Below are positions 35,337 to 64,000 of a stretch of DNA of 64,000 bases, piece after piece. Position numbers and translations under genes: made by a program. This stretch comes from Podarcis liolepis (lineage: Eukaryota), in NCBI GenBank assembly GCA_965112155.1, contig OZ218112.1; one strand, written 5' to 3'. How positions within the stretch are numbered: the stretch's first letter is position 1; every line of letters begins with the position of its first letter. Under the pieces are notes generated by a model, which was not told the origin of the DNA, made no database searches, and saw only the letters and a program-made list of their open reading frames with translations.

Positions 35337-36074
35337 CATACATAAATACCTACATACATCATTTTATTTGTATGCCGCCTTTCCACAATATAAACAATGT
35401 TCAAGGTGGCTTTCAAAGTGAAAAAAGTTATACAATTCAAAACACAGCAAAAGTTGTCATAAACAGTAAATAAAACATCAAAAAGTGCACAATCAAATGG
35501 AACAATTTTCCACATACATCATAATAAAGATTCAAAATAAAGATACAAAAATTTAATATCAATAACAGCAACAACCCTCAGCTCAACAAAAGCCCCTAAG
35601 CAATATCCCAGCCCAAGAGTTGTCCAAAAAAATGAACTTGCTTATCAGATGGCCTTATTCAAATCTCCAGTATATTTCAGTGGAAGCTTTCCTACCGTGT
35701 AGTCTAAGCATTGTATTGTGGCATACATAACCTTTCACAGAAAAGAATCCACTTTGTCTGATGCCAGAGGTTGTACAGTCGACAACAGGTTGTGCCAAAA
35801 TAAAGCAGTTGATTTTAAGATGCTACAAGACTCTCCTTGACTCTTTTTGCTGCAACTGACAAAACAAATTCTAGAGGGACAGATGTGTTAGTCTGACACA
35901 GCAAGTGCATACATAACTCATTTGTGATGGAATAAGATACTTGTTGTTCTTATTTATTTTATTTTTGCATAAATAAATAAGTGTGTGGAATCTGTGCCCT
36001 CTCTGTCTGGGGATTTGGGAAACCAGTAGGTCAGGACATGGAGCATCTGTGAGAAAGGAAGCACCCAAATTGGC

Positions 36075-36359
36075 AGCAAGGTGGGGTTGTTGGGATGGCT
36101 AACCCTTCATTTGAATGCAAATGTTGCTTGAGAGCAGCCAGTTATGTGTGACATCAGATAGAACCTTAGTAAACTGTTGGCCCAGCACCTGGTAATACTA
36201 TTGTTAATCATGTGTAGTAAAGAGACCTCAGGGCTAGCATGAGTCATTCATAGAGCCAGTTGGGGCTAGAAAAAGAGAGTGAGAGAAAGAGGAGGGGGTG
36301 TGACATCAAAGGAGTAGAAGCAGGATGCCTTGGCAGGACAAAGCTAGGGTATGAGCATC
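36075..36359 (+). promoter_or_regulatory. cdx4 proximal promoter / 5' UTR with octamer and TCF/LEF sites
   Basis: ATGCAAAT octamer at 36115-36122, ACATCAAAGG TCF/LEF consensus at 36303-36312, adjacent T-box-like GGGTGTGA at 36296-36303. Blocks of this region are also retained in the downstream duplicate. Confidence 0.6.
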
Positions 36360-36816
36360 ATGTATGTGAGTTATCTTTTGGAAAAAGAAGGCAGCATGTA
36401 TCCAGGATCCGTAAGGTGCAACAGCAGCAGCAGCAGCAACAACAACAACAACAACCTGCCGGCACAAAACTTTGCCTCCACAACACCCTACGCAGATTAC
36501 ATGGGATACCATCCAATGCAAAATATAGACCACCGTGGACAACCTTCAGGGGCTTGGGGAGCACATTATGGCCTGCAAAGGGAAGACTGGAATGCTTATG
36601 GCCCAGCACCTTCCAACACTGTGACCGCTACGCAAATGAATGGATCATCTCCCGGGCAGGTTTCCTATAGTTCTGCTGATTACAACTCCTTGAATCCCGC
36701 TGGATCGGGGGCTTTACCTTCTGTAAATACAATCAATACAGAGCAAATCTCTCCCCACAGTCAAAGACACAGCTCTTACGAATGGATGAGGAAAACAGTC
36801 CAATCCACTTCAACAG
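36360..36816 (+). CDS. cdx4: cdx4 exon 1 (N-terminal activation domain and hexapeptide)
   Basis: Starts MYVSYLLEKE, the Cdx family N-terminus; an in-frame upstream ATG lies at 36351. Contains REDWNAY and SYEWMRK. Ends at ACA G|gtatgt, a phase-1 donor at 36817. Confidence 0.96.
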
Positions 36817-42248: not shown

Positions 42249-42607
42249 GTAAAGGTACCCCTGCCCGTACGGGCCAGTCGTGTCCAACTCAGGGGTTGCG
42301 CGCCCATCTCGCTTAAGAGGCCGGGGGCCAGCGCTGTCTGCAGACACTTCCGGATCACGTGGCCAGCATGACAAATCTGCTCTGGCGAACCAGCACCAGC
42401 GCAGCACACGGAAACGCCATTTACCTTCCCGCTATAAAGCGGTACCTATTTATCTACTTGCACTTAAGAGTGCTTTCGAACTGCTAGGTGGGCAGGAGCA
42501 AGGGGCGAGCAACAGGAGCTCACCCTGTCGCGGGGATTTGCACTGCCAACCATACGATCTGCAAGTCCTAGGCGCTGAGGTTTTACCCACAGCGCCACCC
42601 GCGTCCC
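42249..42607 (-). mobile_element. Full-length Sauria SINE (distinct subfamily) in cdx4 intron 1
   Basis: GTAAAGGTACCC tail through CAGCGCCACCCGCGTCCC head, inserted in a TA-rich tract. Confidence 0.9.
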
Positions 42608-43952
42608 ATGTATATATATATATATTTGCCTTAAAGACCTACATGAGACTGAGTGATAAAAAAAAGTAATATTAATTTAAGACACAGCCTGAGAAAATGT
42701 GGGAGAGGAATCTGCAAAATAAATTTACGATTTTATAATATGTTTTAAGATAAATTTTCCAGTGCTGCATACCAATTGTAGAACAAATTTTAAGAACCAC
42801 AGTTATAAAAAAAATCAGTCAAGAAGCAGAACAACTTAAGAATCACTATATGCAATCAGGTCTACGGACAGATTAAAAGGTAGATTAGGGATGTAATCCT
42901 AAAGCGGGCCTGAGAACATGTAATTTAAGGAAAATGATACTTTGCTTTGGTTTGCATCCTTCCCATAACTCTCCGGGTTGATGATTTGATTTTGGTGGTT
43001 GTGTATTATTAGCTGTAAGAAAAATAAAAGGAAACTGTCAGTCGTAATATGTGAAACTCAATTTTTAAAAAACAAAACGCTTTTGTGCTCAGAGTAGACC
43101 CACTGAAATTAATAAAACCAAGTTATTCATCGTCACTTATTTCAATGGATCTACACTGTAAAAGTAAGTTGAATACAACCCTTATAGTACAGAAGGGGTG
43201 GTGCAAAGGTGGAGGAGAGAACTACTGAAGATTATTCATCCACCTTATCCAATGCCCTCCTGCACACCACCTGGTACGATGGGCCACAGCTGCGCTCTTG
43301 TCCTTTAATTTTTTTAAATAGCCAATATAGAGCCAGTGTGGTTAAAGACGAGGAGCTGGAAGACCTGAGTTTAAACCCCAACTCAGCCATGAAACTCACT
43401 GGGTGACCTTGGGGCAATCAGTCTCTACTGCACTACCCCACAGGAGTGTTGTGAGGCTAAAATGGGGAAGGTACAGCAGCTTGAGATCATTGGAGGAAAA
43501 GTAGAATATAAATGTAAGAATAAATGTAGAATAAATACATCTTTTGTCCTGCTGGAAACAGTGGGAAGGAAATAAAATCTAGGGCTAACGTAGTTACCTA
43601 GAGGCATTAACTGGAGTGGGAAGCTGTTGGATCTGAGCTTTTGCTTGGTCCATCCCAGCACTCCTCTAATATTGGGAGGGCAAGTTTGGGTTCATGTTTG
43701 GGTTCCCTTACACCAGCTCTCCCTGTCTGGGGCGGAATCTCTTTCTCCGTTGGGAGAGAGAACTGGTGCTTCCTATAGCCTTTGGGGCACCCTCCCAGGA
43801 GCTACATAATTGTAAACCTGAGACCATTGAAAATGTCTGGGTAAATAAAAGTCTTTGCCTGATAAGGAAAAGGCAGTGTTTTGGTGAGAAAACTGCAGAG
43901 AGAGTGTGCTAACACCAAAATGTCACTCTACCTGGTCTCTATCTGCTTCATC

Positions 43953-44314
43953 CAGGGCCGGATTTAGGTTTGATGAGGCCCTAAGCTACTGAAGGTAATG
44001 GGGCCCTTTATATGTCCAGCTGTCCTTTGTCAACAACAAATTGTCACTGCTTTTTGTGTTGAATATATGCTATATGGTAATTTAGGGACCTAATAGGTAT
44101 CTAACCAGTGATATTTTAGGGAGCAGTCTAGCAGGCGGGGCCCATTACTTACATCATAGGAGCCTGCACAACACAAAACACTTGTTGCTGTATGTAGGTT
44201 TTATTTTAATTGTTTTTTATCTTATATTTTGGAAATGTAAAATTTGGGGGGGGGTCCCATGAGAATGGGGCCCTAAGCTTTAGCTTGTTTAGCTTATACG
44301 TAAATCGGGCACTG
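43953..44314. mobile_element. hAT non-autonomous element, same family as 30678-31075, inverted
   Basis: TIRs; TSD GCTTCATC / GCCTCATC. Confidence 0.9.
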
Positions 44315-44590
44315 GCCTCATCTCTTAAGATTTATCTTAACCTGTCAGCAGACACATGTGGATGTAGGCAGCCTCAGAGATATTCTATTGTTTTATTACC
44401 AATTTAATTTATTAATAGCTTCTTATGCAATACATAAAAGCAATTTCACAATACAATGAAAACAAATTTCAGCTAAAACAACTGCACATATAAAAATTGT
44501 TAAAACAATAGTGCTTTAAAGATTAAAACCAACAGCACAATGAATTGTGCTCAGAAACAGACAATAAGTTAAGCTCCAAAATTGGCAATA

Positions 44591-44822
44591 CAGTGGTACC
44601 TCGGGTTACAAACACCTTGGGTTACAAACAGTTCAGGTTACAGTCTCTGCTAACCCAGAAGTTAGCATCGGGTTAAGAACTTTACCTCAGAATGAGAACA
44701 GAAATTGCGTGGTGGCAGCAGCAGGAGGCCCCGTTAGCTAAAGTGGTACCTCAGGTTAAGAATGGTTCAGGTTAAGAATGGACCTCTGGAATGAATTAAG
44801 TTTGTAACCAGAGGTACCACTG
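44591..44822. mobile_element. Tc1/mariner (Tigger-like) MITE, same family
   Basis: CAGTGGTACCTC TIRs with TA TSD. Confidence 0.9.
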
Positions 44823-47800
44823 TATATATTGCTGCCCAGCAATATAGTACTCTATTTTTTGGGGGGAACAGCTACATTTCCCAAGTAGTCTTCAGTGCCA
44901 GCCTCATGCACAGCCCATTGCAGTAGTCTAATTTGGAGAAAAGGGCATGAAAGCAGAAAGTATAAGGAGATGGTGCCCACCTCCATACACTTCCATTTAT
45001 CAACAAGCTAAGAGTGCAATTCTCCATGAAGACCTCATATTATGTTAGCTCTTCTTCCACAGCTGCTGTTCATTTTAAGGGAGCTTGCTCAGAAGAATCT
45101 GCCACAGGATTGTGTCCTATATCAGTTATTTAATACCATGAAGGTACATGGCACCTCACAGAATAGCATAAGCAAATGACAGTAAAACCCTTTAAAACTT
45201 TGACTGTGGAGGGATAAATAAGGGATGGGTAAGAGAGACTCATATACCAAGCAGTGAATGAGAGTCAAACATTATAAAGCTTTGTTTCAAGGAAATGAGG
45301 ACTAAGATAGGCCTTTGGCCCTCCAGACAGTGCTGGAATTCCAACCCCCATCAACCCCAGCCAGCATGGCCAATGGTGATGGGAGTGATGAGATGGTGAT
45401 GGGAGCTGGAGGCCCACAATTTCCCTATCCTTGAATTAAGTGGTTAAAACAATGGACTGTATTCAAATATGTTTTATTCAAAGTATAACCATTAAAATTA
45501 ATGGATGTACCTAGTTTAAGCCCATTAATTTCAGTGGGTCTGCTCTAAGTAGGACTTACTTGAATACAACCCAAAATAAGGCTAGATTTGCGTATCCCCC
45601 ACTTCTATAATAAGTTTAACAATTACATCAGTCACTATGCTAACAGTTGAGCTTCAGATCTCGTTCACATTTTTGCCCAGGACCATTTCTTTGTTGCTTT
45701 GAAGTAGATTTAATGTGTATAATTAGAACTGTGTCCCCATCACACAAACGAGAATATCAACATGGCCTCTTTTTTATCACCCTGCAGAAGTCACAGACAT
45801 AGACTAATTCATGTGACAAAGAGGATGTTAATGATGTAAAACAGGAGCAACTCTCAAGCAAGGAGGACAGGGTGAGCCAGAGGCAGTTTTCATGCTAATT
45901 TATTTTGCTTTGTAAACTAGCTGTGAGGTCTGAGCATCCCCCACCCCGCCATGTCTTGCCCCTTCCATCCATTGTCTTCAGTTCAGAGGCCTCTCTGCCA
46001 TGTCAAGCAACAGACCCTCTTTTGACACCTCTTCCAGCTTTGATGTGCATCCCTGTCTCTTCCTTCTCTTCCTTTTATTTAGCAGTTATACTGCCGGAAA
46101 GAGTGACAATTTTCACAGCAAATAAAGAGGCCCGATCTTTGCTTTTATTGTGTTCAAAAGAAACACTCTGTGAATTTTATGGCCAATAGGAAAACTTCCC
46201 CCACCCCCTTCCCATCCCACACAATACTCAGGCTGAGTCACAGACTGGTAGAATAACAGGAGTATCCTAATACAGGTCAAACATCAGGTGAGTAGTTTCG
46301 TGGCATTTAGAACAGCCTGATTTCCACAAAAGATTACAAATGAACACTTAAATGGCTCTGCCCTCACATTTGCACATTGTAATAATTAATTTTGAAACAA
46401 GATACAACAAAAACTTTTCTCACCTGTTTTTTTAAAAAGGGGCTAGAGCCCAAGAAACCACTGGGAATCACTATATTCCCCCGCCACGTGCCCCAAACAC
46501 ACACATACAGCAATGAATGGGACAATGTTCCAATTGTTTTCTTTAAAAACGCAAAATACAATTCAGCCCAAATAAAGCACATTTAAGTCCTGTTTATTTC
46601 AATGGAATACATATTGACTTTTCTGGGGCCGGTTGTACAAACTGTACAAGCAAAACAAAGTCTGAAAATTAGGTAACTGTGGCAAATTGCAACAAGTTGT
46701 TTTGTACATACAATTCCTTGCTTATTTAAAAGCAGGTAGAGTTTGAATGTTTCCCTCAAGAAGAATAACTTTACGCATGATCTGAGACAATACCAAGATC
46801 CACAGGCAGAATCCACACAGAGCTTGAGGACATGTTTAACTTTCTCATAGCAAACAGATCAAATGTGCTTCATTTTGGCTAGATAGTACCCTATTTGCCT
46901 TATGATATTGAGTAAGTAAAGCAGTGGTACTAATTGTAAAGAACTAGGGAAAGCATGAATGGTGAACCTTTTACAGAGTCACATTCTCTTCTTGCAGGGC
47001 TGGTTTTGTTGTGACAGTGGTGAGTGGGGCCTCAGATAAAAGTAGACAGAGGAACAAATGTAAATTGTGCCTTTGAACCATAGGCTTGTTTCTACATACA
47101 CCCACACACCCCTCTCTATTTTTCAGTTTGGCAGTCAAGAGGCATTATCAGAGATCAAGGACACCTTCCAGACAGGGTATGGAGCAGGGCTGCTGAGGGT
47201 TGTGGCTTAGGAAGTCCTGAGGGCAGCCTGAGGAGAGTCTTGAGGGCCAGTATTAAAAGGGTTTGTAGAATGATTAAACAATTTAGGACTAGTTCAAATA
47301 GTGCATCCCACTCAAGCCTTTATAGACACCTATAAAAATGTAATGGAGACATTGCTATTCTCATTGGAGCACTGAGTACATCTATAATTACCAGGTTTAA
47401 CTGCTAATTTTTCCACACTGTGTTAGAGGGCCTTTTCAACAGAAGCACCAAAGTGGGGATCACCCTCTGAGGTATAACTTGTACCGACTTTGTACAGCTT
47501 TTGTCAACAGGTCAAGATGCACTTCCTTGCCTAGGCTTTTGGAGAGGTGAGGTGGGGTGACAATCCGCTCTTTCTGCTGCTTCAATGTGCTGTTGCTTTT
47601 ACGTATCCCATCATGGGGGCCCTTGGATGAAGAGTGGGCAATAAAAGTGATACAGTCACCTGCTCTGCTCCTGGATCTGATTGGTTCAGTGGAGGGGCAG
47701 GAAGTGCTTCTTGCACCCCCACCCTCCACCCAAACCAATCAGATCCAGGAGCAGAGGAGTAACTACTCTTTTTCAAAAGGCAAGACAGAAATAACCTATA

Positions 47801-48021
47801 TAACAGTTTGCTAAGAACTATAACATGAAGAGCCCATGCTTGAGCTTGTTTTTCCCTTTCCCTGCCCGTTCATTTTCCCTAGTGTGTCAATGTCTTGAGC
47901 CTAAGGACAGGAACTGTATTAGTACTGAGCTTGGTAAGTTGCCCTGGGAGATTCCCCCACCCCCCAAAAGGGCAGGGTATAAATGCAACAAACAAACAAA
48001 CAAAGTTGAGAAAGAAATATT

Positions 48022-48160
48022 TAGTCAGAGAATTGTAGAGATGGAAGGGACCCTGAGGATCATCTAGTCCAATCCCCTACAATGTAGGAATATGCAGCTG
48101 TCCCATATGGGGATCGAACCTTCAACCTTGGCATTATCAGCTATAACCCACTAAGCTATC
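48022..48160 (-). mobile_element. SINE with tRNA head and CR1-derived tail
   Basis: gggatcgaacc B-box complement joined to the CR1 3' end (ggaagggacc...catctagtcca). Confidence 0.65.
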
Positions 48161-48227
48161 CATGAAATTGTTTATTTTCAGTTAATAAAAATTAAATCCT
48201 CTTGATAGTAAGAAAACCGATTTACAA

Positions 48228-48229
48228 AA

Positions 48230-48286
<57 letters not shown>
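48228..48286. repeat. (TACA)n/(TA)n microsatellite
   Basis: Directly visible. Confidence 0.95.
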
Positions 48287-48288
<2 letters not shown>

Positions 48289-48329
48289 TTTAAAGCAGGT
48301 GTTGGAAAACATTCAAATGTTTATTAAAA

Positions 48330-49095
48330 TCAACAAAAGCTAAAAATAAATGAAACACATGTAACTTCTACATTTCTAGATAGGCTTTCCCAAACAAAAA
48401 TGTATTTGACTGACACCAAAAAGAGAACAGTGAACTGGTCCCGAGCTATTAAGCGACTACTGTAATTGTAACCCCTTGAAACTGGCCCGGTTTCAAATGG
48501 GAAACCAGTGCAGATCTGAAGAGAAGTGTATGCAGACAGGATCTAACTCCTGTAAGCAACCATGCTGGAGAATTCTTCACAAACTGTAGCTTCTGGATCA
48601 GGTTCCAGGGAAGCCCCACAAAGAGTGCACTGCAGTAATCCAACTTTGAAGTCACCAGTGCTGGAACTATTGTGGTCAAGCTCTGCAGGTTGAGGAATGG
48701 CTGTAGCTGTCACCCCATTCACAGTTGGTAAAAGGTGCTTCTAGCCACTAAGGCTATTGGAGCCTCCAGTGACTTGCACTGGATCCAGAAGCATTTGCTA
48801 CACTGTGTACCTGCTTCTTCAAGGGGAGAATAACCATGTCAAGGAACGCAACAATAGCCCATATTCTCAGCCACAGGAACCACTCACCCAGTGCCTCCAT
48901 CTTGCCAGGATTCAAGCTTAGCTTATCTCACCTCATCCCAACACCAGTCCAAAGCCTACATGACATCTCCTACTTCAGATGTTATGGAGAAATAGAGCTG
49001 AGTGTCATCAACGTACTGATGGCACCTTAACACAAAACTCCAAATGGCTGGCCACAGTAGCTTCATATAGATATTAAATCACACAGGGGATAGAA
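48330..49095 (-). mobile_element. Old L2-like LINE fragment in cdx4 intron 1
   Basis: ALVTSKLDYCSAL remnant and a QYVDDTQLY-like reverse-strand motif near 48990-49020. Confidence 0.8.
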
Positions 49096-49336
49096 TGCTA
49101 TTCTTTATGTAGAATATTGTGGAATGCTCTCCACAAGAAGGATTGCCTGCCACATTTGTTACAAATCCTTAGGCGCCAGGGAAAACATTCCTCTTCTCCC
49201 CAACCTTTGGCTAGTTAAACAATCTATGGCCTTTTCAACTGTGTGTTGGTGGTGGTGGGATCATTGTTTTTGTTTGTTACTATCTTATGTATTTGTTGTG
49301 TTTTTATATTGTTAACCGCCTTGTGATCCTCAGGTG

Positions 49337-49478
49337 NNNNNNNNNNNNNNNNNNNNNNNNNNNNNNNNNNNNNNNNNNNNNNNNNNNNNNNNNNNNNNNN
49401 NNNNNNNNNNNNNNNNNNNNNNNNNNNNNNNNNNNNNNNNNNNNNNNNNNNNNNNNNNNNNNNNNNNNNNNNNNNNNN
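49337..49478. other. Assembly gap (142 N) in cdx4 intron 1
   Basis: Run of N. Confidence 1.
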
Positions 49479-49964
49479 CAGTGCCCTGCAGCACCTAGCG
49501 TAACTGCCAGGAAGCCAGAAAGCACTCTACCACTACTATTTGTCCCCTTAGGTAGGATTCGAACCCCTGGGACACAGGGCCCTCAATTCCCATTCTGAGT
49601 CAGTCCAGAAGGATACCATCATCAGTGGTACTGAAAGTCACAGAGAAATCAAGAAGCACAGTCACACCCCCTTTATTTCTCTCTCTGTATAGTTCATTAT
49701 TAGGACAACATACATAGAATGGTAGAGCTGGAAGGGACCCAAAGGGTCATCTAGTCCAACCCCCTGCAATGCAGGAATGTATACACATACAAACTACTAC
49801 TGTCAAGAAAGCGAGAGTATGCAGGAGTGTGTATCCTGGCACTCTCCAGAATATATGTATACATCTGTATTTCAGTCAATCAAGACACAAACATGAGACA
49901 CGCCAAATTTTCTGGTTTAGAAATACCTATGCGTATTTTGTTTTTGTTTTTTTTTTCTGAACAG

Positions 49965-50110
49965 GTAAAACAAGAACAAGAGAGAAGTACCGTGTTGTTT
50001 ACACAGATCATCAGCGATTAGAACTAGAGAAGGAATTTCATTACAATAGATATATTACAATCAGGAGAAAGTCTGAACTTGCTGCAAACCTGAGACTTTC
50101 AGAGAGACAG
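49965..50110 (+). CDS. cdx4: cdx4 exon 2 (homeodomain, N-terminal part)
   Basis: Polypyrimidine tract and acAG acceptor at 49964. The 146 bp exon reads (G)[48 protein letters not shown], with donor gtagag at 50111. Phase matches exon 1. EKY, YNRY and KSELA..L.LSERQ are Cdx4-type residues. Confidence 0.97.
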
Positions 50111-51018
50111 GTAGAGTATGGTTTCTAATACAAAAGAGGTAAATTACTGGACCAAATTTGGGTGGTGTTAAAACAAAAACTGCAAAGCTTTCAAGGGAGG
50201 TATGTGTAAAATGGCTCAGTTCAACTCACCATGACTATTTACTTTAATAATGTTTTATAAATAAGTGGTCTAAATGTTTTATTATTTATAAATAGACAAA
50301 AATTGCCATGAACAAGGTATTAAGCACACCTTATTGAGTCTTTGCTCAGATTTTGAAACGGTGACTCTATGGTTATTTTTAAGGTTTTAAGCTTGAAATG
50401 GGAGTGAAAACTTGTGGAATGCATGAAGTATGCTTTAAGAAAAGCTAACTAGCATGCTGGCTGTGGTTGATCGGAGTTGTCATCCAACATACCTGGACAG
50501 CATCAGCAAAGGCTGCATTAAGGTTGGAAAGATAGGAATGTACCTTAGACCAGGTCACACTGTTTATCTCACCCTTTACCCTGAGAGGCAGCAGTAGGGA
50601 ACTTTCCCATTACTTGCCACCTGTGCCAGAGACTGAATCTGAGCCTTTATGCATGCAAAGTACATGCTCTGTGCTGAACTACTGGATGAGTCCCACTCTC
50701 CCCAAGTTGTTGCCAACTTATCAGAGAACAATCAGCACAGCCTGCTCCTGCCTCTTTAACAGTAGTTTGATATGCAGGAGTCATTGGATGAAGCTTTTCA
50801 TGGCAGGCATGTAAGATATCTTTCAGTATTTCAAAAATGGGAAGACTATTGTGTGTTTGATAACACTACTATTCTCACAGTAAGAATTAGTAGCACACTA
50901 CATACCTGCCCCCTCATTTCAATATCAGGCAATACTGTAATTCTCTCAACTTCTGATTCACTTGGACTTAGTTTGTCTTGCCCATATAATATCTCTCGCA
51001 GAGCCTGGGAGGCAAGAG

Positions 51019-51148
51019 CAGTGCTTTTTTCTGGGGGTACATGGGGTATGCATACCCCTAAACATTTTGTGAATCTATGTTTTGCCTCATTGAGGAGCAG
51101 TATTTCAATATGAGTAGGAAAAAACATTTTTTAAGAAAAAAAGCACTG
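51019..51148. mobile_element. hAT MITE (CAGTGCTTTTT family) in cdx4 intron 2
   Basis: TIRs; perfect 8-bp TSD GGCAAGAG. Confidence 0.9.
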
Positions 51149-51671
51149 GGCAAGAGTATCCAGTTGTTAAGACACATGAACAGAAAGCATATCTAGAAGC
51201 GGTGCCATCTTGGTGGCACAAGATGCCACCAGAATTTGAGTAAGTTCACTCAAAAGTTAATTAGTTTAGTTGATATTTTAGAATGTAAAATGCTATTTTA
51301 TTTACTGATTGGTTTTACCTGGTGGGCTTATAGCCGAATAAAGTATTATCTATCTATCTAATGAGGGTGGTACATCTGTAACGCTAGGTGAGGGTACTAA
51401 AGATGGCACTGCTTGCTTGCACAGACACATTGCACACAACTTCTTAGAAGCACAATGTATGTCCCTTTCTGTCAGATGTCACAGTCTGCCAACAAATGTA
51501 AAGGGTGGCAAATACATCCATTTTGTTGTTTTGCTGCCCCTCACATTGGACCCAAATGTGCAACACACACCTTCCCAGTGATTTAATTAGAGAAAGGCAT
51601 ACAAAGAAGGACATATGCATTTATAATTTAGTGGTAAGCAACTGAAACCATTATATTATTTGCCCTTGTAG

Positions 51672-51926
51672 GTAAAAATCTGGTTCCAGAACCGAAGAGC
51701 CAAAGAAAGAAAATTAATGAAGAAGAAAATGACAAGTTTTGATGGCAGCAGCCTCAGTTCCATCCAGAGTGACTCAGGTTCAATGAGTCCCATCCCAATG
51801 CCTGACCCACAGACTCATTCAGAAATGGCTGGTACTTTATTCCCACCACCTCCACCACCTGCTCCTCTTCCAATGAATGGCTTACAGCACAATGGAAATC
51901 TCCAGCAAGTTGTGGCATCTCAGTAA
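51672..51926 (+). CDS. cdx4: cdx4 exon 3 (homeodomain helix 3 and C-terminus)
   Basis: Acceptor ttgcccttgtAG, then VKIWFQNRRAKERKLMKKKMTSFDGSSLSSIQSDSGSMSP...LFPPPPPPAPLPMNG...QQVVASQ*. Spliced CDS is 858 nt, 285 aa. Confidence 0.97.
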   Translation, partial: VKIWFQNRRAKERKLMKKKMTSFDGSSLSSIQSDSGSMSPIPMPDPQTHSEMAGTLFPPPPPPAPLPMNGLQHNGNLQQVVASQ

Positions 51927-53461
51927 GGTCATTGCGTTAAAGGAAGAACATGATAAAGCATGGGTACATGGAGCACTACAGTTCACAACGGGAATGTCAA
52001 AGCTGTTTGCAAGAGACCCAACTCTGCAGCCCCAGCATCACAACAGCCATTTGTAAAATACTGAGAACTTCACATCACATCAAGGCCTGGGAGAAAACAG
52101 CAAAACATCCTTTGGCAAGGTCACTTGTGATATGGCAAAATCTCTTTGGGAACCTTGTGTTCTTGACTGCAAAGGTGGTCTGGAAATAGGGGCAGAGAGA
52201 AAGGGGGTTATGGCCGGAAAAACTTTTTTGGAATAAATGCCCCAAATCTGCAGCCCCATACTTTGCTTGATTTGAGACTGAATAATTTTTACACAGAGCA
52301 ATTCCAGTAATTTGTTCTTTCTATAATGTTTTTATTCTGTTCTCTTAACAGGGTGGAGCTAATGACAATTACAAGGAAATGAAGGGTTACACTGAGTCAG
52401 TGTAGCTTGTTGTCAGGACTGGGCATATGCTGTGTTTCTGCAGAAGTACAGGAAAAGTAGACAGTGCAGTATTAGGCACAAAATTCAGCTTCCTAAGAAC
52501 AACTTTCATTTTAAACAGAAGTTTCTAGTCCTTATGGCTAAAAAGTTATGCCTGAAGGTGCACAGGCAATGCCTGATAAAATTTCAGAACCTAGACACAT
52601 AGCTAAGAAAGATTTCCAGTACTTGAGGGCAAACTCCTTGTTCCTTGCCATGACCAGCAATAAATTTTGCAAAATAAGGACACTGTGCAAATTTGCTGAG
52701 TTTGCACAATGGCTTGTCCAAATGCAGATGTTGCTTTTTAGTGTGGAGGTTACACACCAGCCAACTTTTTGCTGATTGGATGTTTCAGATGTAAAGTTTT
52801 CGGATGTTTGAATCCATGGGGAAATTGGGGGGGGGGATAGGTTTGCCATTAAATTATTGTGTTTGGTACAGTATATTAAAAGTTAATAATTTTGGGTTAA
52901 TAATTACAAATCGAATTTACTTCTTAATTATTATTTTTTAATTACAAATGGAGCTACAACTGCTGAACTGTAATCAACCTAGCATTCCCCCCCCCCCCAT
53001 TTTTCCAGTTTATAAGGAAAAGGTGGAACCTCCCCACTCCCAGGAACAGGAGAAACCACCAACATTATAGTAAACGAAAATGTTTGTGTAATCTGAAAAT
53101 TATTAAAGTCCTATTCAGAGTAGACCCACTGAAAGTAATGTAGCTAAGTTAGTATTGGGTCTACCATGAGCAGGGTTAGCACTGACTACCACCCTGTGTC
53201 TCCTACAGTCCTCCACAATGTGAAGCAGACATAAAGCATTCATATCCATAAACAGAAACTGTGACAAAGCAAGGAGGGATATTACATGAATTTTAATCAA
53301 CCTCTTTTTCTGAGCCACCACAATCAGTTTCTGTTTCTTCATATTTGTTATTATATTTATCATGGACTTCTAAAAGCTTAAGGTTTGCCCAGGTTGAAAC
53401 AAACTTATCTATCCTTTCACATGTCGTGGGGAAGGGAAAGGTTTGGAGGAAGGGTAGAAGA

Positions 53462-53467
53462 AATAAA
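53462..53467 (+). terminator. Candidate cdx4 polyadenylation signal
   Basis: AATAAA followed by a U/GU-rich tract; an alternative AATAAA lies at 52232-52237. Confidence 0.3.
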
Positions 53468-54150
53468 ACTGTTTTGTTTTATTTTTTTTCCTGGGTCTTC
53501 ACATCTCTAACCTGAAGCCATGAAATAAGTTTGATGGCACATCACCAGCTTCTGTTCCATTCCATTGTTTAATTCAAGATTCCTGTGGTTTTAATTTTGT
53601 ACTTATTTCATATCTGCACGGGAGCTTATGATTTCATGTCTTGATATTCTCAACTAAATGACATCAGGGTTGCTCTGGACACCAGAATTAATAGAGAAGG
53701 GGAGGTACTCTTCAAGTTCTGGTTTTTAAATTATTAACTAAAATCTACTTCTAAAATTCAGTTGAACAGGAGAGACTCTTGTGCAAAAAGGGGTTGCACA
53801 TACCTAGTTGTATGCACCTAGATTCAGCAGCTGCCAAAAGGAGGTAAGGATGTGTATTTCCAATGAGAAGCCACATTTCCATCCATACTTCGCAGTACTA
53901 AATGTGATACTCATCTGCACCTAATCTGCACTCACAAAAGCTGAGTTCAGATTATCAGTTTTAAACTATGGCTTAGATCAGGGATGAGGAACCTGTGGTT
54001 TTCAGATGTTGCGAGGTTTCAACCTTCATCATCCCTGACCATTGAGCATGCTGGCTGGGACTCATGGGAGCTGGATTCCAACAACACCTGGAGGGTCACA
54101 TGTTCTCTATCCTGGTTTGGAGGGAAATTAGCTGCAGTGAGATTCCAGTA

Positions 54151-54261
54151 CAGTAGTACCTCGGGTTAAGAACTTAATTCGTTCTGGAGGTCTGTTCTTA
54201 ACATGAAACTGTTCTTAACCTGAAGCACCACTTTAGCTAATGGGGCCTCCTGCTGCCGCTG
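54151..54261. mobile_element. Truncated copy of the Tigger-like MITE
   Basis: One TIR end plus internal sequence shared with 32746-32987. Confidence 0.8.
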
Positions 54262-54490
54262 TTTTAAATTAGTATTTGAAACGGGGCAGTGTGTTGGAAG
54301 CTGCATGTTCAGTTCTCAGTTTAATATTAAAAATATAAGAGCTTGACTGCTGAATCAGACCAAAAGCCTGTCTAGTCTATCACTGTGTTATCACAGCAGC
54401 CAACAAGATGCCATGGGAAAACTGCAAGCTAGAGTACAACCCCCCCCCCCTTTCCCTACCTGTGATCCACTGACCCAATTGTGGGGTGAT

Positions 54491-54730
54491 CACTGGTGGA
54501 AGAAGAGGGGGGCGAGGGAGCGCCCTGCCCCCGGCAGTGCGATCCCAGTGGGGTTCCATTCCGGCTGCTCCCCTGCCCGCGCTGGGCACCCCACCCCCAC
54601 AGGCGGTGCGCCCTGCCTCCAGAACATGCGCCATGCTCCTGTGGGAGGCGCATCCCACCCCCAGGACATGCGCCAGCCCCGCCCTGCCTGCTCTCCGCCC
54701 CCAGTGCCAGAGCACAAAGCTCCGCCACTG
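54491..54730. mobile_element. GC-rich hAT-like MITE
   Basis: CACTGGTGGA / TCCGCCACTG ends; degenerate TSD GGGGTGAT / GGGGTACT. Confidence 0.65.
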
Positions 54731-56617
54731 GGGGTACTCTGTCAGTAACCAGGACAAGGACATAGTGCCAGGCTCCTAGTAGCTGTAGAAGGCCTGGCAG
54801 TACCAAAGGCCTGCTGCCACTTAATCTCAGGGTCTGATGTTGAATGCTACTATTTCTTTCTGTATCTGAAAAGGGTTCTGTGACTTGAGTGCACCTAATC
54901 CCTGGTACCTGCCTCAGACCATGAGTTCCCACTTCAAGCCTTGACATATCCCAATATTCAAGAACCATACATCCCTCATATCACGATTCATTTGAGACAT
55001 CATGCCAAACTATGGTTTGCACTATCATTTGGAAACTTAACCAGGATTTGTGTGCTAAATGTAGACCATACAATGTTATAACCTGTTAGTGTAATCCTAT
55101 AAATAGTATCTGTCTACCGAAGAAAAATCATGGCTCAGGGCTGTAGGTGTGCTTTCACATTCTGTCTGCTCAGCTTCAAAAATTTACTCCCCACTCGTAG
55201 TGCAGCAGCTTCTGGACAAAACTGTGTCTTGCCATTTCAGACGCCACACAGAAGCAAAAGCACTGCCTACAGAGAAATGCTATACTCGTGGCCACTTTCA
55301 TGTCGCCTTGGAAGAAACACATAATCAAATAAGAGGGCACAGATTTGCATGTTCTGATTTACATGTATAGATGCAAATTAATAAATAATTATAATTTCAA
55401 ATAGAACTCTGGCGCATATTTCCATAGTAGGAAAGAGTGTAACCAGGTGATCTGTGTTCCTGCTCAGCTGTAGTCTAAGCCTTGCATTCCTTTCTAATGG
55501 TATCTTTAAACAGATACATTATTTTATCCCCTGGAGTTAATAGTTTTATGGTGTTATCTCTCTTTATATGCACTCCTTTACCTCAAAATGCGATAAGGCT
55601 CTCTTGCTGCATTTGAGGGCCCTCCTGCTCATTCTGCTGAGTGGGGTCCTGTACCTCTGCCCCAAAATCTGGCCCAGATGGCACCACTGACCAAACATGG
55701 ATTGGATAACCCCTTGAAACTGTCCTCTATAAAGTATGAAACACGAGGACCCTATAAGCACCATTACATTCAATGGAATTTACTAAATAGGTATAGGATT
55801 GCAGCCTCAAGCTTTCTTCACCATGGTTTTGACATGTTATCTTAATTGAACCTAAGTTAACTGCATGTATTTGATTTGTTAAGATGTTACAGAGGAAAAT
55901 CCTTAAATTTGATATACAAGAGCAGATGAAATCAATTGCAAATTTACCAAAGTCTGCCAAAACGTTTGACTTACAATATTTGCACAGATTTCTATGCAGG
56001 TTGTTGATGGAAGAAGCTTACCCTGTTTGCATCCAAAGCCATCTTCAAAAAGTCATAGGTTGAGGTCCAAACTAGAACGCCACATACTTACCTGTATCTT
56101 TCTGTTATGCTTCAAACAAAACAAAAAAACAAAAAAACAAAAAAAACGCACGAGAAGTTTCAAGTTTAAATGGAGGAATAATGCAGGAATGGGCTGCTTA
56201 ACCTTTTTCTCCTCTAGCTATTTTTATTGTTAGAAGCACATTGCTCTGGGACAAAGGCAGCTTGAGGAGAGCAATTATGAGGAGAAAAGTTAGCAGAGAG
56301 GAAAGAATTAAACAGCTGGGGTCCAACCCAATAGCCCAGTCCACTCCAACAAGAGATTATTCTTTTTTATTAAAACATTATTATTTTTTACAATAATGGG
56401 GGCAAACCACCAAAAACTATCACATGTCGGGCCACCCAGATTGGTGATTTTTCTGCAGGTGTATTCTGCAATATGTCATTGACACAGCAAAAGTGCATTA
56501 AGGGTAGATTTATATTGGACTGTCCACATCTCATTCTGCTTTATTAGTTGATGTTTCCCATTATTGCTATCTGGAGTGCACTCTTAAACTGTAATGCAAC
56601 TTACCGGTAGGTTTGAC

Positions 56618-56744
56618 CAGTGCTCTTTTAGGGTACTCAAGGGTACTCAGTACCAGCACCTCTTTTGTTGTTAAAAAGTGTGACACTTACTGTAACAAGT
56701 TCATGGTGAGTACTGGCACCTATTTTTCTAGGAAAAAAGCACTG
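56618..56744. mobile_element. hAT MITE (CAGTGCT family)
   Basis: TIRs; TSD GGTTTGAC / AGTTTGAC. Confidence 0.82.
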
Positions 56745-58323
56745 AGTTTGACAAAAGATTTGTGGTATAAAAAGTTACCAGATTTCAGTAGGAAGTTACA
56801 GGACACACACTGATTGGAAATGAAGCCGTATATTGGCCCCAAAACTTTTGCAGACACCAACAGTATTGAAAGCTAGTTTGAATATAACTATCCCATTACC
56901 ATCATGAGCACAAATAATCATGAATGCATAATAAAAAGGACATATGGAAGGGTTCCAAGTCTGGCCCTGTGTGTCGTTTTCAGAAATATTAACTACTGAA
57001 GGGTGAAAGGAACAGGAGACAAAGCAAATAATTCACCTCCTGAGTGGGTCAGTGGAAAGTGCTAAATATGTTCATTTTTACATTACTCTGTTATCCAGTT
57101 TTGAAAGTTGTTTTGAAGCTCAAAGACTCTTGATTGTCTTAGGCAGTAACAATGGGTTCCACCTTCTAAAAAAACTAAACAAACATTATAACAGACCTTA
57201 AAGTTGCTTTATATACACAATTTTTAACAAACCATCCTTTGTTGATGTGGTGCCCTCCAGATGTTTTGGACTCCCATCAGCTTCAGCCAGCATGGAATGG
57301 CAAAGGTTGCAATAAATGATGCAGATGTTTTCATTGTAGTGTGGTGTAAGCTACTACAGGAAATGTCAAGGCACAAATGCTTTTGCTGTTATTCCTTTTG
57401 ATCATAAGTAAAAGTACAAAAAACAAAACCCTACAATAAATACACTAACTGATCATATTAAAATGTAGGCAAGAAAATTATTCTTTTATATCTCAGTTCA
57501 AATATGAAAAGAAGTGATATTGAACAGCCCATGCAATATCAAATTGCCATCAATTTACATTGGTATCAATGAACAAAGCAAGGATTATGTTGCATTTATC
57601 CTCCTAAACATATTTGAAAAGTCCTTAGAAATTCCATGGTGGCCATTAAAGGAAGAGAAACTTACACTTCCTGGTGTGAAAATTTGGGACGTCAAAACAA
57701 AAACAGCACTTTAGTCACTTGTTCCAGGATCACTGCAGGGTTAGTTTATCTGGTAAACCTTGTTTACATACAGGAGATAATTATGAAGGAAGATAAGGAA
57801 AGGCTTTGAAGACATATTTTAATCTAATTTGCTAAAATGTTGCTTACTTTTGATTGCAATATGTTTTCATTAGATGCAGCTAGTATGTAACATAAAGCAG
57901 AGTTTTTAATAAGGCAGTACCCAAAAGCTAAAATCAGAACTGAAAAGTTTAAATCAGTAGATTTAAGAACAAAAAGACAACTTTTTTGGAGCTGTTATAC
58001 CTCAAGAGCACAGTTGTTTATATAGTTTTCAAGCCACTTGTAGCCCTAGTTTATTACTGCATTACAGAATGCGTAAGGAAATGATAAAGACGGTCCTTCT
58101 AACAATGAGCCTTTATTAATCAAGTTGCAAGTTATTTCACTCAGTAGCACAAAAAGCAGTATCTCATGGGGGAAAATGCAGTTATATTTGAACTCAATAT
58201 ATTAATTGGTTAAAAGGTAGATTAATAACTAAAATATGTCTAATCTATTGACAGCCCTAATTAAAATATATTGCTATAAAATTGAACAATGCCTTAATTA
58301 TCATTAGCCTAGTAGTTATATAG

Positions 58324-59010
58324 TGTTATGAGTTTGTGGGTGCCAGGTTCCTCTGAATCCCTGGAACCAGTAAGTGTTAGAATTTAATTAAATACTGCTA
58401 ATTTCAGAAAACTACCAGACAACTACAATCCCCGGATCCAGCAAAGTATTAGAATCTAATTAAGGTTTGGGGTGCTAAGAGGTGTACTAGCCATCTCTAA
58501 TCCTTGGATCACCAAGTGTTAAAAGATAATTAAGCTCAGCTAGTTTCCTTTTGAGGTGATAGGCAGGTTATGGGCCATTCAGAAAACATGGGCTCCAAGG
58601 GACTTAGTGAGACAGCCAAATGGTTGGGGCCCCTCCAGCAACTGATAAATCCAGAGTTTAAAATAAAGAGTTAGAAACAATGTGAGTTAGAAGTTTAGGG
58701 TAGAGGCAGTAATGTGACCTAGAAGTAAAGTAGGAACAGGAGAGTCAGAGCAATTTTCTGAGAGCGAGGTTTGAGAGCTTATTTGCATTCAAGGCTTTGG
58801 CTGTGAGAAAAGCAAGGCCTGCTTGGAGTGTTAATGCTGTGAACACCTTCACTGGAGGCTCAGGTTGTATATATGTGTAAATACACTATATATCCTACGA
58901 ATACCACAGTCTCTGATGTGCCACATTTCCAAAAGGAAATACGGACCCTGAGTGAGAGACTGAAACCCCTGGAATCTTACATAGCTCAAAGACAGGAGTA
59001 GCATACAACA
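58324..59010 (+). mobile_element. Probable solo LTR (Gypsy-like)
   Basis: TGTTATG...CATACAACA termini; 4-bp flanks ATAG/ACAG; internal short repeats and a degenerate polyA-like U5 region. Confidence 0.5.
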
Positions 59011-59553
59011 ACAGTGATTCTTTAACATCAATTTTACTCATTTGAAACCATGCAGGAAGTATGATTCAGTAAGCATTTTGTTAACTGTAACAAAGAAAAA
59101 GCTATTTTATGCAATAAATGTTTGTAAAATACATTTGTACAAGTGGAAAGCCAGAATATTTGCAGGTGTTTTTTACTTTGCAGCACTTTGTTTCCTTTCC
59201 CCCATTTGCACACATCCTTTCATAAACAAAGAGAACTGGAGCAGCAGCCAGAGTGGCCAGAGTGTTTGTACAAGAGTGGTCATTTTGTTGACTGAAATTC
59301 TTGCATTTCCTATGGAGAAAGAGATGGACCAGGGATCAGAGAAACTGTTGGTGTGTGGGGAAAGAATGTATGTCCACCAGCCTGCCTTCCAGACATCTTT
59401 GGTCCCTGAATTTGGGAAAGAAGCCAATTATTCCTTATGCCCTCAACATTTCTTTCCTGAGTGCCAAACCTTCTTTCTTCCATGGAACAGAAGGCTTGAC
59501 CAAGACATTTCGGTGGCTGAAATATCTAAACAACAATTATCCCATCTGTTAAT

Positions 59554-60015
59554 GTTGTTGTTGTTGTTTAGTCATTTAGTCATGTCCGACTCTTCATGAC
59601 TCCATGGACCAGAGCACGCCAGGCACTCCTGTCTTCCACTGCCTCCCGCAGTTTGGTCAGACTCATGTTTGTAGCTTCCAGAACACTGTCTAACCATCTC
59701 ATCCTCTGTCGTCCCCTTCTCCTTCTGCCCTCCTTCTGTGCTCCTTCTGCCCTCAGTCTTTCATCTTTTTCATCAGACCCTCATCAGGGTCTTTTCCAGG
59801 GAGTCTTCTCTTCTCATGAGGTGGCCAAAGTATTGGAGCCTCAGCTTCACGATCTGGCCTTCCAGTGAGCACTCAGGGCTGATTTCCTTAAGAATGGATA
59901 CGTTTGATCTTCTTGCAGTCCATGGGACTCTCAAGAGTCTCCTCCAGCACCATAATTCAAAAGTATCAATTCTTCGGCGATCAGCCTTCTTTATGGTCCA
60001 GCTCTCACTTCCATA
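59554..60015 (-). mobile_element. RTE-BovB LINE 3' fragment
   Basis: ORF YGSESWTIKKADRRRIDTFELWCWRRLLRVPWTARRSN; (CAA)n tail; perfect 11-bp direct repeat CATCTGTTAAT at 59543-59553 and 60016-60026. Confidence 0.93.
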
Positions 60016-60424
60016 CATCTGTTAATATAGGGCACAATACATCATGAAAAATTCCTGCACATGCTCTATTGCAATAATCAGAAACTACTGTACTCTTATG
60101 CAGTTTATTTCATTTCAATAAGGATTGTGCAGGAACTGATGGTGGATTGTGAGTGACAAGTCACTGGCCACTTCATTTTGCCTTTCCTTTCCAAACCTGG
60201 TATCCTTCTGATGTTTTGGGGAACAGCCATGCAAGCTAGGGTTGATATAAGTCATAGTTCAAAATATCTGGAAGGGCAGCTTTTCCTGCATTTAGGTGAG
60301 GTTCCTGGGTGTACCAGCGCCAGCTTCCATGCTGTTAGGTACCATCTATAGGTAAGTTTCAGAATGAGTTCTCTTTTCTGTGTTTGTTTGTTTTGTAACA
60401 CAAGAAAATCTTTAATAAAAACTA

Positions 60425-60666
60425 CAGTGGTACCTCAGGTTAAGTACTTAATTCATTCTGGAAGTCTGTTCTTAACCTGAAACTGTTCTTAACCTGAAGC
60501 ACCACTTAAGCTAATGGTGCCTCTTGCTGCTGCTGCGCCGCCACTGCACGATTTCTGTTCTCATCCTGAAGCAAAGTTCTTAACCCAAGGTAATATTTCT
60601 GGGTTAGCAGAGTCTGTAACCTGAAGTATATGTAAGCTGAAGCATATGTAACCCGAGGTACCACTG
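60425..60666. mobile_element. Tc1/mariner (Tigger-like) MITE, same family
   Basis: CAGTGGTACCTC TIRs with TA TSD; followed by (AAC)n. Confidence 0.9.
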
Positions 60667-60667
60667 T

Positions 60668-60721
<54 letters not shown>
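60668..60721. repeat. (AAC)n microsatellite
   Basis: Directly visible. Confidence 0.95.
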
Positions 60722-60722
<1 letters not shown>

Positions 60723-61549
60723 CATCTGGAGGGAAACCAGGTTGGAGAAGGTTACCTTACAGTTTGGAGCCGTCTCTGTTCCCAACTAATCCCCAGATAC
60801 TGACTGAAATGTCCATTTCTTGCTTAATGCTATCAAAATCTGAACATATGACCAAGGAAATGAAACAAGTGAAGGAGTGAGGAACCTTTTCTATCCCAAG
60901 ACTACATTGCCTGCTAGACAATCTTCTGAGGATGACATGTTGTTTGTGGGCAGGGCCAGAGGCAAAGTGGGAAGAACAACAGTTGTGAATTTTACCCTTG
61001 TACAGTAGCATCTACACCAGCTCCCACACCCCTCTCCATCTTTCATCCAGGAAACAAGAGTCATGGTCAGAGTTCAAGGGCACATTCCAGACAGGCAAAA
61101 ACACTCATAGAGGGTACATGGCAGGGCTAGTGAGGATGTGTGGCCTGTGGAGACTTCTCAGGGCTAGATATGGGTCCTGGAGAGTCACATTTTGTCATTG
61201 TGCCTAAATTTCCCCACTTCTGAAAATGAGAGTTAAACTTTCCGCTACTAGATACTGAACTTTCCTTCACCTTCACTTGTTAGAGAAACTCTCTTGCTTG
61301 CCTTTTACCCATCTCTCTGATGGTCACAGCTTCCCTCTTTCCTGGAATTAGTATGGATGTACTAGTCTGAATGGTGTCAAGGTGTAAAGAGCTCTGAAAG
61401 AATCCACCTATCTGAGAAGCTAAAGGTCTCATAATACGTCACATCTCTTTTGCAAGGACATCCTTTGACAAATACCTTAGTGTTTAGTTATATATCATGT
61501 AGGATTTTATTTTTATTTTTTAAATGTAAACAAAGAGAGCAAGACAGAG

Positions 61550-61823
61550 CTAGCAGAAAGGTGGGGTTGCTTGGATGCGTCAGCTCTTCATTTGAATGGA
61601 CATGCACTTAGAGAATTGGCAGACCTTTTCCTAAACCATGACTACCAGAAGCTTGGTAACACAATGACTGGTAACACAATGACTGTTAATTCAAAATAGA
61701 GTAATAGATTCAATCAGATTGTGATGTGTTCCAAAGACCAGCAATAACTTATATTTCACCTTATATAAGAAGAGAGTAACCAACAAGCAGGATGTCAAAA
61801 AAAATCCACCAGTCAATGATGTC
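61550..61823 (+). promoter_or_regulatory. Duplicated, degenerate copy of the cdx4 proximal promoter
   Basis: Blocks shared in the same order with 36075-36330: aaggtggggttg, cttcatttgaatg, tggtaa...tgttaat, aagagagt, aagcaggatg. Confidence 0.75.
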
Positions 61824-62248
61824 ACGTATGTAAGCCATCTTTTGGAAAAAGAAACCAGGATCCCTAAGGAGCAACAATAACCATCTAACAACACAAAACT
61901 CTGCCTCCACAGCACCACATACAGATTGCATGGCTTATTGTCATCTGCCAAGTATGGAAAACCATGGACTGGTAAACCGGTCTTTGGGGAGCTGGGGTTC
62001 TCATGATGACCCAGAAAGGGAAGATTGGCATTCTTACGACCAAGGACCCTCCAGGACAGATACTTGTTTACAAATGAATTCCTTATCTCCTAAAAGGGTT
62101 TCATACAGTGCTGCTAATCACAGCTCCCAAATCTTCTGTGCCTTCACCTTCTGTTACACAATTAATATGGATCAAGTCTCTCCCCATAGTCAAAGACAAA
62201 ACTCATCTTATGAATGGATGAGAAAATGCATGTACTCTACTAATAAAG
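61824..62248 (+). pseudogene. Diverged tandem duplicate of cdx4 exon 1 (cdx4-like pseudo-exon or truncated paralog)
   Basis: ACG TAT GTA AGC CAT CTT TTG GAA AAA GAA reads (M>T)YVSHLLEKE. After a net 11-nt deletion the frame from 61855 reads PGSLRSNNN...QNSAST...MAY...GSWGSH...REDWHSY...QMN..SP..VSYS...SPHSQRQNSSYEWMRK, colinear with cdx4 exon 1. The donor position reads AAAG|ATAAGT. Confidence 0.92.
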
Positions 62249-64000
62249 ATAAGTGGACACTATTATATTTCCAACCTCGTAATCTGCCCCCCCCCCCAAT
62301 CTTTTCTTCTCTAGTAGAACTCTTGGCATGATCCAGCTGAAGTTTCAAATCCCACACATATCTATTCCTCATTCCTCTCACAGAGTGAAAGTGCACTAAG
62401 CAAGTGCTTAACTTTCCTACTGAAATCAGTGGAGCTTAAAACTTCTTAACTCTTTGCTGGAACCTTTATTTAGGAATGAAACTTCTGTGCTTATGCAAAT
62501 TAAATCTACATAATTTCAGCTTCTAAAGGCTGAAATCTTGGTAGCTTGAAATAACTTCACCTTCGCAAAGTTGCAAGTTTCAAAGTTTTATACATTTGTT
62601 TAGGTTTGAAAGATGTTGAATCTATAGCACTTTGCAGCATGAGCCAGAGTATTATGAAAAAAATCTATTTTTCTTAATAGCATCTCTTTTTTTTACATTA
62701 GAATACAGTCTTTCCAATAAAGTTATCCTATGATATTCTTAATGTATGAAAAAATATTCATTATGAGAGCTTTTTTTTTTTGCTGCCCCCAAATGTTTAG
62801 TAGACTGATACAGCTGGGCTAAGTTTCATGATGCTCTGATGTTTAAGGAGTCTCACCTCATATTAACATGTTTAAACTAAAAAGCATGCATTGGGTGCTA
62901 TCCAGCATTAGTCATACCCAATGGATCAGCTCTATGACTTATCTAGGTATCACTCAGTAAGTACAATAAATTACTGACTTAGATGCAAATGAAAAGCATG
63001 TCTGCCTTCTGTAAGAAGTGCCTTAAGATCATTTGCCATAATTTGTAATTTTCCCCATTATAGTGTCCTGTTTATTTAATAAATGACTTATTGCTTTACA
63101 GAAGACTTTTTGCCATCTGTTTTAAAAATATATTCCTGAAGGCCCATATTAAAGCAGAAAGGGTTGTTGTGGTTGTTTTAATGGAAACCTGTAAGCCAGA
63201 TTTAACCTCTTCTTTGTGTATGTTGAATTTAAGAATAATGGACCATTGGCAATTCTAGCAAGGTTAACAGCAAGGATAGAATTAAGCTGAAGTTACGCAC
63301 TTTTTCATGCTGATTAATTTCAGTGGCAGAGTTCAGCACATGCTTAAATATCTCCCATTAAAACTTTTGAGACTTAAAGGTGCTTGAGTTTGGCAAAATT
63401 GTGCCTGAAGTGTGCCACTGAGCACCAAGGAGAAGAAGGGTAATTACAGTAGACTAATCCTACAAGATGCTAAACCCATCAATTTAGCTTGTAAAACAAC
63501 TCTGCTACTAATGGCTACTATCATTCAACGCTGAGATTCATTTGGTGATTGTTCTTGTTCCAAAACATTCGTACTTCTCGTTACTACTTTTGCTTAAAAA
63601 AATTAGGAGGCAATACAGATTCAAGTGAGTCTAATTCCAGGTTCTTAAAAATGCCTGTAAATAAAAGATAAAAATAAATAGTATAAAACATAAGCCAAAT
63701 ACTATTGTGCTTGCATGGTTAAGACTGAAGATAGGATACTGAACTTGGACCTGGCAGAACTGGTTCACATCAGTTGTGGCACCCCAAGGAGACTTGTTTA
63801 ATTTAACGTATTTTTAGTCCCAGGCAAACACTGATATTTCCAAACAACTATTGAGATTTTAATATCTATGGAATTTTAAATACTTGATATTTTTGTGTAA
63901 AGCTTTTTATTATTATTTCATTTTACAATGTATATAAAAGAGAGAGCAATTATAACAGACAAAAATTAAAAGAAGAAAAACAAAACTATACAACAGGCAT

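Follow-up and report, generated by a model that had tools for sequence, protein, structure and literature searches.

The exon-1-like sequence at 61824..62248 (+) of a 64,000 nt stretch of Podarcis liolepis DNA (GenBank contig OZ218112.1; hereafter the window) is very probably a unitary pseudogene of the type-B, mammal-type Cdx4, a gene putatively orthologous to mammalian CDX4. A unitary pseudogene is an inherited gene that has been disabled in one lineage at its ancestral place and is intact in outgroups; for this remnant, an intact orthologue is present in outgroups and no intact copy in this genome. Cdx genes act in posterior axis growth and Hox activation. The two Cdx4 types, A and B, are likely to have arisen as a pair before the amphibian-amniote split, and lizards and mammals have likely retained opposite copies. 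The relevant features of the window are as follows.

36052..36310, +, promoter and 5′UTR of the intact gene, homologous to 61530-61804
36360..36816, +, exon 1 of the intact type-A Cdx4, 99% identity to the Podarcis muralis protein
49965..50110, +, exon 2 of the intact type-A Cdx4 (homeobox, first part)
51672..51926, +, exon 3 of the intact type-A Cdx4, coding part, with the long type-A tail
61530..61804, +, promoter and 5′UTR of the remnant, homologous to 36052-36310 (blastn and local alignment)
61824..62248, +, probable decayed type-B Cdx4 exon 1, Caudal activation region only (alignment, Pfam and trees)
61824..61826, +, lost start codon, ACG compared with ATG in the intact gene
61850..61880, +, 11-nt deletion near 61853, shifting the frame to TAA at 61878-61880
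61834..62331, +, residual stop-to-stop frame of 165 codons, first ATG at 61930
62249..62254, +, dead splice donor ATAAGT, compared with GTATGT at 36817 in the intact gene

The intact Cdx4 has three exons (36360-51926, +) and predicts a 285-aa product. The gene order, with all genes on the + strand, is a VEGFR-like kinase, type A, the remnant and chic1, where the names of the two flanking genes are presumptive assignments from sequence motifs. The chic1-like exons begin 7.6 kb beyond the window end, with the remnant immediately upstream on the same strand. A Pfam Erf4 search left these exons unmatched and matched two other loci instead, and an ESM Atlas query with a chic1 exon gave no usable match. 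Exon 1 of the intact gene includes a run of Ser/Asn codons (36419-36454; AGC, then AAC repeats) whose length is not constant across lacertids and which type B lacks. A Pfam search over 22 long frames of the window (of 37 listed) found a single match above cut-off, a reverse-transcriptase fragment at 23648-23995 (-) (PF00078, 66 bits) that is likely a LINE relic.

A second copy of the promoter, 5′UTR and exon 1 spans 61530-62250 (+). Local alignment of the two promoters scored 101.5, compared with a maximum of 78.5 across 300 shuffles, and includes a core block at 61553-61604 with 81% identity to the intact gene; a TATA-like TATATA is at 61762. The coding part of the remnant matches Caudal_act (PF04731) with 91 bits against a cut-off of 22.4, and the hexapeptide region is represented by YEWMRK at 62209. 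The five codon comparisons and the motifs LLEKE, WGxH, REDW, QMN and YEWMRK listed in an earlier sequence-only reading of this DNA are all present in the alignment, as are the three lesions (two single transitions and one deletion) recognized there. These are the ACG start, the 11-nt deletion, which also takes out the second in-frame ATG, and the replacement of the GT donor by AT at 62249-62250. Three runs from related lizards, X4, X6 and X17, cover the start, the deletion and the donor with no difference listed at any of them, and the lesions are therefore not assembly errors; coverage in a fourth related run, X20, reaches the promoter only. The residual frame is broken in relative X6 by TGG>TAG at 61994. 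A 15-bp tandem duplication 5′ of the remnant (61654-61683) is found in the window and in X4 and is missing from X6 and X17.

Inactivation had been ascribed to the two transitions and the deletion, an account that overlooked the absence of exons 2 and 3 and hence of the whole homeobox, which have been deleted as well. Neither the 9.3 kb up to chic1 nor 150 kb downstream yielded a second exon 2 or 3 in searches with tblastn, blastn, nhmmer and a profile, and a search of the whole genome recovered only three Cdx homeoboxes, with a homeodomain belonging to the remnant not among them. The best profile score for traces of exons 2-3 was -2.2 bits, and for exons planted as controls (20 runs each) the lowest score was 26 bits at 15% decay, 8.8 bits at 25% and 2.0 bits at 35%.

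When the remnant frame was used as the query, the sole match (1 of 18 word-seeded candidates) was a CDX-4-like protein of the worm lizard Rhineura floridana [XP_061454459.1], which is annotated as intact, is 250 aa in length and bears a homeodomain. Its accession is the next after that of the Rhineura type-A protein [XP_061454458], and the contigs of the two are of equal size. Trees of exon 1 recover the remnant as the sister of Rhineura B, with support of 100/98 (48 rows) and 100/96 (25 rows), and this pair is nested in a squamate B clade that includes the second genes of a skink and geckos (98/96 and 94/97, respectively). The remnant and Rhineura B are 62% identical over 126 columns; the remnant matches Rhineura B and not the neighbouring type A at 26 of these columns and the neighbour and not Rhineura B at 11 (p=0.02), and 13 of the 26 residues shared with Rhineura B are found in none of 14 squamate type-A rows. 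Both also have a common extra residue before SSYEW. The raw score counts against this relationship, as Rhineura B scores 163 bits with the intact exon 1 and 151 bits with the remnant, but a closer match to the intact exon would be expected if the remnant has decayed. XP_061454459.1 is the closest sequence to the remnant, from which it differs in being intact and in having a branch one third as long (0.12 compared with 0.38; relative-rate p=0.03).

An origin of the remnant from an intact lacertid or lacertoid gene was rejected (AU p=0.0005 and 0.0006), and the remnant fails to group with a same-lineage parent, as would be required of a lineage-specific duplicated pseudogene (AU p=0.0005). The view that this copy is old and was once functional is upheld by the intact Rhineura orthologue and by the occurrence of type B in geckos, a skink, a boa, turtles, birds and mammals. 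The view that it is a duplicate of the cdx4 gene next to it is not, and the remnant belongs instead to an ancient paralogue.

Two Cdx4-type proteins were found in caecilians, frogs, turtles, birds, geckos, a skink and Rhineura, using a search with the Rhineura B protein (best 120 of 380 matches listed) and cluster look-ups. Type B is intact among database proteins from Rhineura, geckos, a skink, a boa, turtles, birds, amphibians and mammals. The A/B pair has consecutive accessions or locus tags in Rhineura, Pangshura, Cyrtonyx and Ascaphus, and tandem order outside the window species is deduced from consecutive accessions together with equal contig sizes of the proteins. The first exon 2-3 tree left out 5 of 71 rows (one identical copy and four partial or odd models), and the later trees were built from 48, 25 and 41 of the rows. 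Exon 2-3 trees recover a type-A clade of caecilians, frogs and sauropsids (98/96; 98/97) that holds the intact gene of the window, and an amniote type-B clade supported at 97/91 with platypus and echidna and at 92/82 when bilby and tiger are added. A 9-residue deletion in exon 3 is present in 14/14 type-B rows, including those from amphibians and mammals, and in 0/13 of the type-A, lungfish, coelacanth and fish rows. Rhineura B carries this deletion and a short tail, while exon 3 of the remnant itself is gone. The trees do not bring amphibian B and amniote B together, nor is their grouping rejected (AU p=0.29); the two are united by the deletion only. Placement of mammals within sauropsid type A was rejected (AU p=0.0006), as was a duplication confined to amphibians (p=0.019), amniotes (p=0.016) or sauropsids (p=0.002); a looser arrangement, with mammals next to the entire A clade, could not be rejected (AU p=0.21).

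All four of the mammalian CDX4 proteins examined (platypus XP_028923047, echidna, bilby and tiger) are type B. Mammalian CDX4 and chicken CHOX-CAD2/CDX4B [NP_989945] belong to the type-B lineage like the remnant, to which they are linked via Rhineura B, and the remnant shares the position of mammalian CDX4 just upstream of chic1. Unlike mammalian CDX4, it consists of a promoter and exon 1 only, with the start, frame and donor broken and the homeobox gone. The type-A genes, with an exon 1 that is homologous to the remnant, represent a distinct paralogue in which the exon-3 tail is longer, and none was among the mammalian proteins seen. Names given to type A are inconsistent (CDX-1, CDX-1-like, CHOX-CAD-like and CDX-4), and chicken XP_040526489 is labelled CDX-1 yet is a type-A Cdx4 in sequence. 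A Melospiza gene model (P0034) joins type-A exons 2-3 to an entire type-B gene, in agreement with a tandem in which B follows A in birds.

The lacertids Lacerta, Zootoca and Podarcis are represented by type A only among the best 120 of 380 matches listed, which extend down to 264 bits, with squamate B proteins scoring 316-355 bits. Type B is also absent among the matches listed for python, colubrids, elapids, vipers, Sceloporus and Salvator, and further losses of type B within squamates are possible. The boa Candoia aspera (P0095) has a fast-evolving type B, and its exon 1 groups with snake type A.

Exon 1 has a different history, as exon-1 trees group the paralogues by lineage, with birds at 100/99, turtles at 96/85 and squamate A and B together at 99/93. 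The chicken A and B proteins (P0336 and P0340) have the same sequence between residue 6 and a point shortly after the hexapeptide, so that exon-1 probes are unable to separate them. Exon 1 is near-identical between paralogues within birds and within turtles (P0027/P0086, P0041/P0089 and P0009/P0077), and exons 2-3 are distinct. This pattern suggests that gene conversion has homogenized exon 1 repeatedly and that, in the lineage of the window, it did so for the last time near the base of the squamates. Such homogenization would explain why the remnant resembles a much younger duplicate, and the divergence measured in the sequence-only reading would therefore date the conversion event and not the duplication. 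Conversion with its neighbour would give the remnant the look of a young duplicated pseudogene, unlike typical unitary pseudogenes.

Differences between the remnant and the intact exon had been described as falling mostly at third positions. There is a real excess at third positions (p=0.027 compared with first and second positions), but "mostly" is an overstatement, as the counts at positions 1, 2 and 3 are 32/138, 35/139 and 48/138. The residue is kept in 74 of 135 codons and changed in 61, and in blocks chosen for a conserved residue all differences are synonymous by construction. The pairwise maximum-likelihood omega is 0.56, which differs from 1 (p=0.028) and also from 0.2 (p=0.0001). When the line of the intact gene is fixed at an omega of 0.1-0.3, that of the remnant takes a value of 0.84-1.02, never distinguishable from 1, or 0.71-0.87 with gap flanks trimmed; these values assume equal synonymous rates, halve the pairwise path equally and use the site patterns of living sequences. 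The bias had been taken as a sign of past purifying selection on the copy, with an omega close to 1 on the copy's own branch named as the contrary outcome, and the fit of about 0.7-1.0 comes near to that outcome. Constraint on the intact neighbour suffices to account for the mild synonymous excess, most of which is what was conceded there as a caveat, namely the effect of selection on the intact type A.

Where the residue is common to Rhineura B and the intact gene, the remnant departs from it at 9 of 34 highly conserved columns and 16 of 43 variable ones (p=0.34). In each of four intact type-B controls the conserved sites are spared (p from 0.006 to <0.0001), with one of the four falling to p=0.09 at the loosest threshold. 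Among close relatives, exon 1 has accumulated 8 nonsynonymous changes, one of them a stop, and 1 synonymous change, a small sample that rejects an omega of 0.3 (p=0.013) and is compatible with neutrality (p=0.30). The remnant now drifts neutrally. The 275 bp at 62013-62286 show no substitutions among three relatives compared with nine in 61862-62012 (chance about 0.07).

These findings can be accommodated in a scheme in which a tandem duplication of Cdx4 after the lungfish and coelacanth split would have produced A upstream, with a long tail, and B beside chic1, with the 9-residue exon-3 deletion. Exon 1 of the two genes would then have been homogenized repeatedly, near the squamate base for the last time in this lineage. 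After the split between lacertids and worm lizards, type B would have been lost via deletion of exons 2-3 and point lesions, in whichever order, and the remnant may have been drifting for a large part of the lacertid branch since that split. The share of the remnant branch spent dead, by two-rate arithmetic, ranges from 0.28 to above 1 depending on the assumptions. Type A alone likely carries Cdx4 function in these lizards and the reverse likely holds in mammals, where the loss of type A is based on four mammalian proteins and the gene count of one paper.

A coding phase on the remnant's own branch is possible because substitutions have introduced no stop into about 130 codons of the remnant (neutral chance 0.07-0.17) and two of its three indels are in frame (chance 0.10-0.25). 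The same two features, together with the departure of the pairwise omega from 1 and a slightly lower rate of change at conserved sites (odds ratio ~0.6, not significant), would also suit a cdx4 duplicate that purifying selection maintained over most of its own branch until the three lesions recently killed it. We consider this unlikely, since the remnant line fits an omega of 0.7-1.0 on a branch three times that of Rhineura B, exons 2-3 are gone, the lesions are common to three relatives, and a duplicate arising in the lacertid lineage is rejected by the AU test. Had the promoter and exon 1 been duplicated in tandem within lacertids, dead on arrival and never with a homeobox, then only these two parts would be present, as is observed, and the pairwise omega would be that expected from one neutral and one constrained branch. 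This proposal is largely refuted by the AU test (p=0.0005), by the sister relationship to intact Rhineura B (100/98), by the 13 exclusive shared residues and by the extra residue before SSYEW, and is hardly credible.

A unitary pseudogene might also have been put to a new use, in the form of a short protein with only the activation domain, starting from the ATG at 61930, a non-coding RNA, or an enhancer of type-A cdx4 or chic1. The frame from 61930 is open for 133 codons, the promoter block can still be recognized and the segment at 62013-62286 is unchanged between species. As a protein this is opposed by the stop at 61994 in one relative and the 8:1 excess of nonsynonymous changes, and conserved residues change freely; we regard repurposing as very unlikely. 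Loss of an inherited type-B gene is the reading preferred here.

The Cdx complement of tetrapods has been described differently. According to PMC4522105, one and the same set of three Cdx genes is shared by human, mouse, chicken and Xenopus tropicalis, with no loss in any group but teleosts, and three Cdx are likewise recorded for coelacanths in PMC4471637. The linkage of Cdx4, Chic1 and Lnx3 is described in PMC2430539, chicken CDX4 is treated as a single gene in bioRxiv 10.1101/177469, and "CDX1/CDX4B" are named together on chromosome 4 in PMC13064311. Both Cdx4 genes are already in the databases, where the chicken entry "CHOX-CAD2 / caudal type homeobox 4B" is B and "CDX-1" [XP_040526489] is A. 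No description of the Cdx4 pair or of its loss in lacertids was found in full-text searches of literature that lies mostly outside subscription journals. A parallel is Pdx2 of coelacanths and sharks, which, according to PMC4471637, is an extra ParaHox gene that was overlooked and independently lost in several lineages, as may hold for the second Cdx4 gene. Pdx2 differs in dating to the vertebrate genome duplications, the Cdx4 pair being attributed to a tetrapod tandem duplication with exon-1 conversion.

It is an evenly balanced proposition that a fourth Cdx gene is ancestral to tetrapods, as a tandem twin of Cdx4 that has escaped description, hidden by mis-naming and exon-1 conversion, and that mammals kept one twin and lacertids the other. 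The proteins compared here show four Cdx genes in many tetrapods, against the three reported in PMC4522105. If the proposition is correct, the gene called "Cdx4" may not be the same one in experiments on mouse, frog, chick and lizard, which would affect orthology in comparative Cdx4 work. Exon-1 probes used in chick would detect both twins. If the Xenopus Cdx4 that has been studied is type A, the dominant effect of its knock-down and the role of the mouse gene would concern different paralogues. Wall lizards would offer a dated and still readable loss of the mammal-type copy, and thus a testable reciprocal loss of a developmental regulator in a group relevant to trunk and tail evolution. The synonymous bias alone is of little interest.

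Over 49900-62500, runs X19, X21, X23 and X24 gave depth on repeats and some flank only, with zero on the remnant and likewise on exons 2-3 of the intact gene. Shallow contigs with a depth of about 2 lie upstream of the remnant in X20 (61537-61777) and X19 (61482-61666), and these runs, guessed to be RNA, may be DNA. Other shallow contigs (depth 4-8), from a run guessed to be RNA, cover 52968-55676 in the 3′ flank of the intact gene and not its exons, and possibly represent DNA carry-over or a non-coding transcript.
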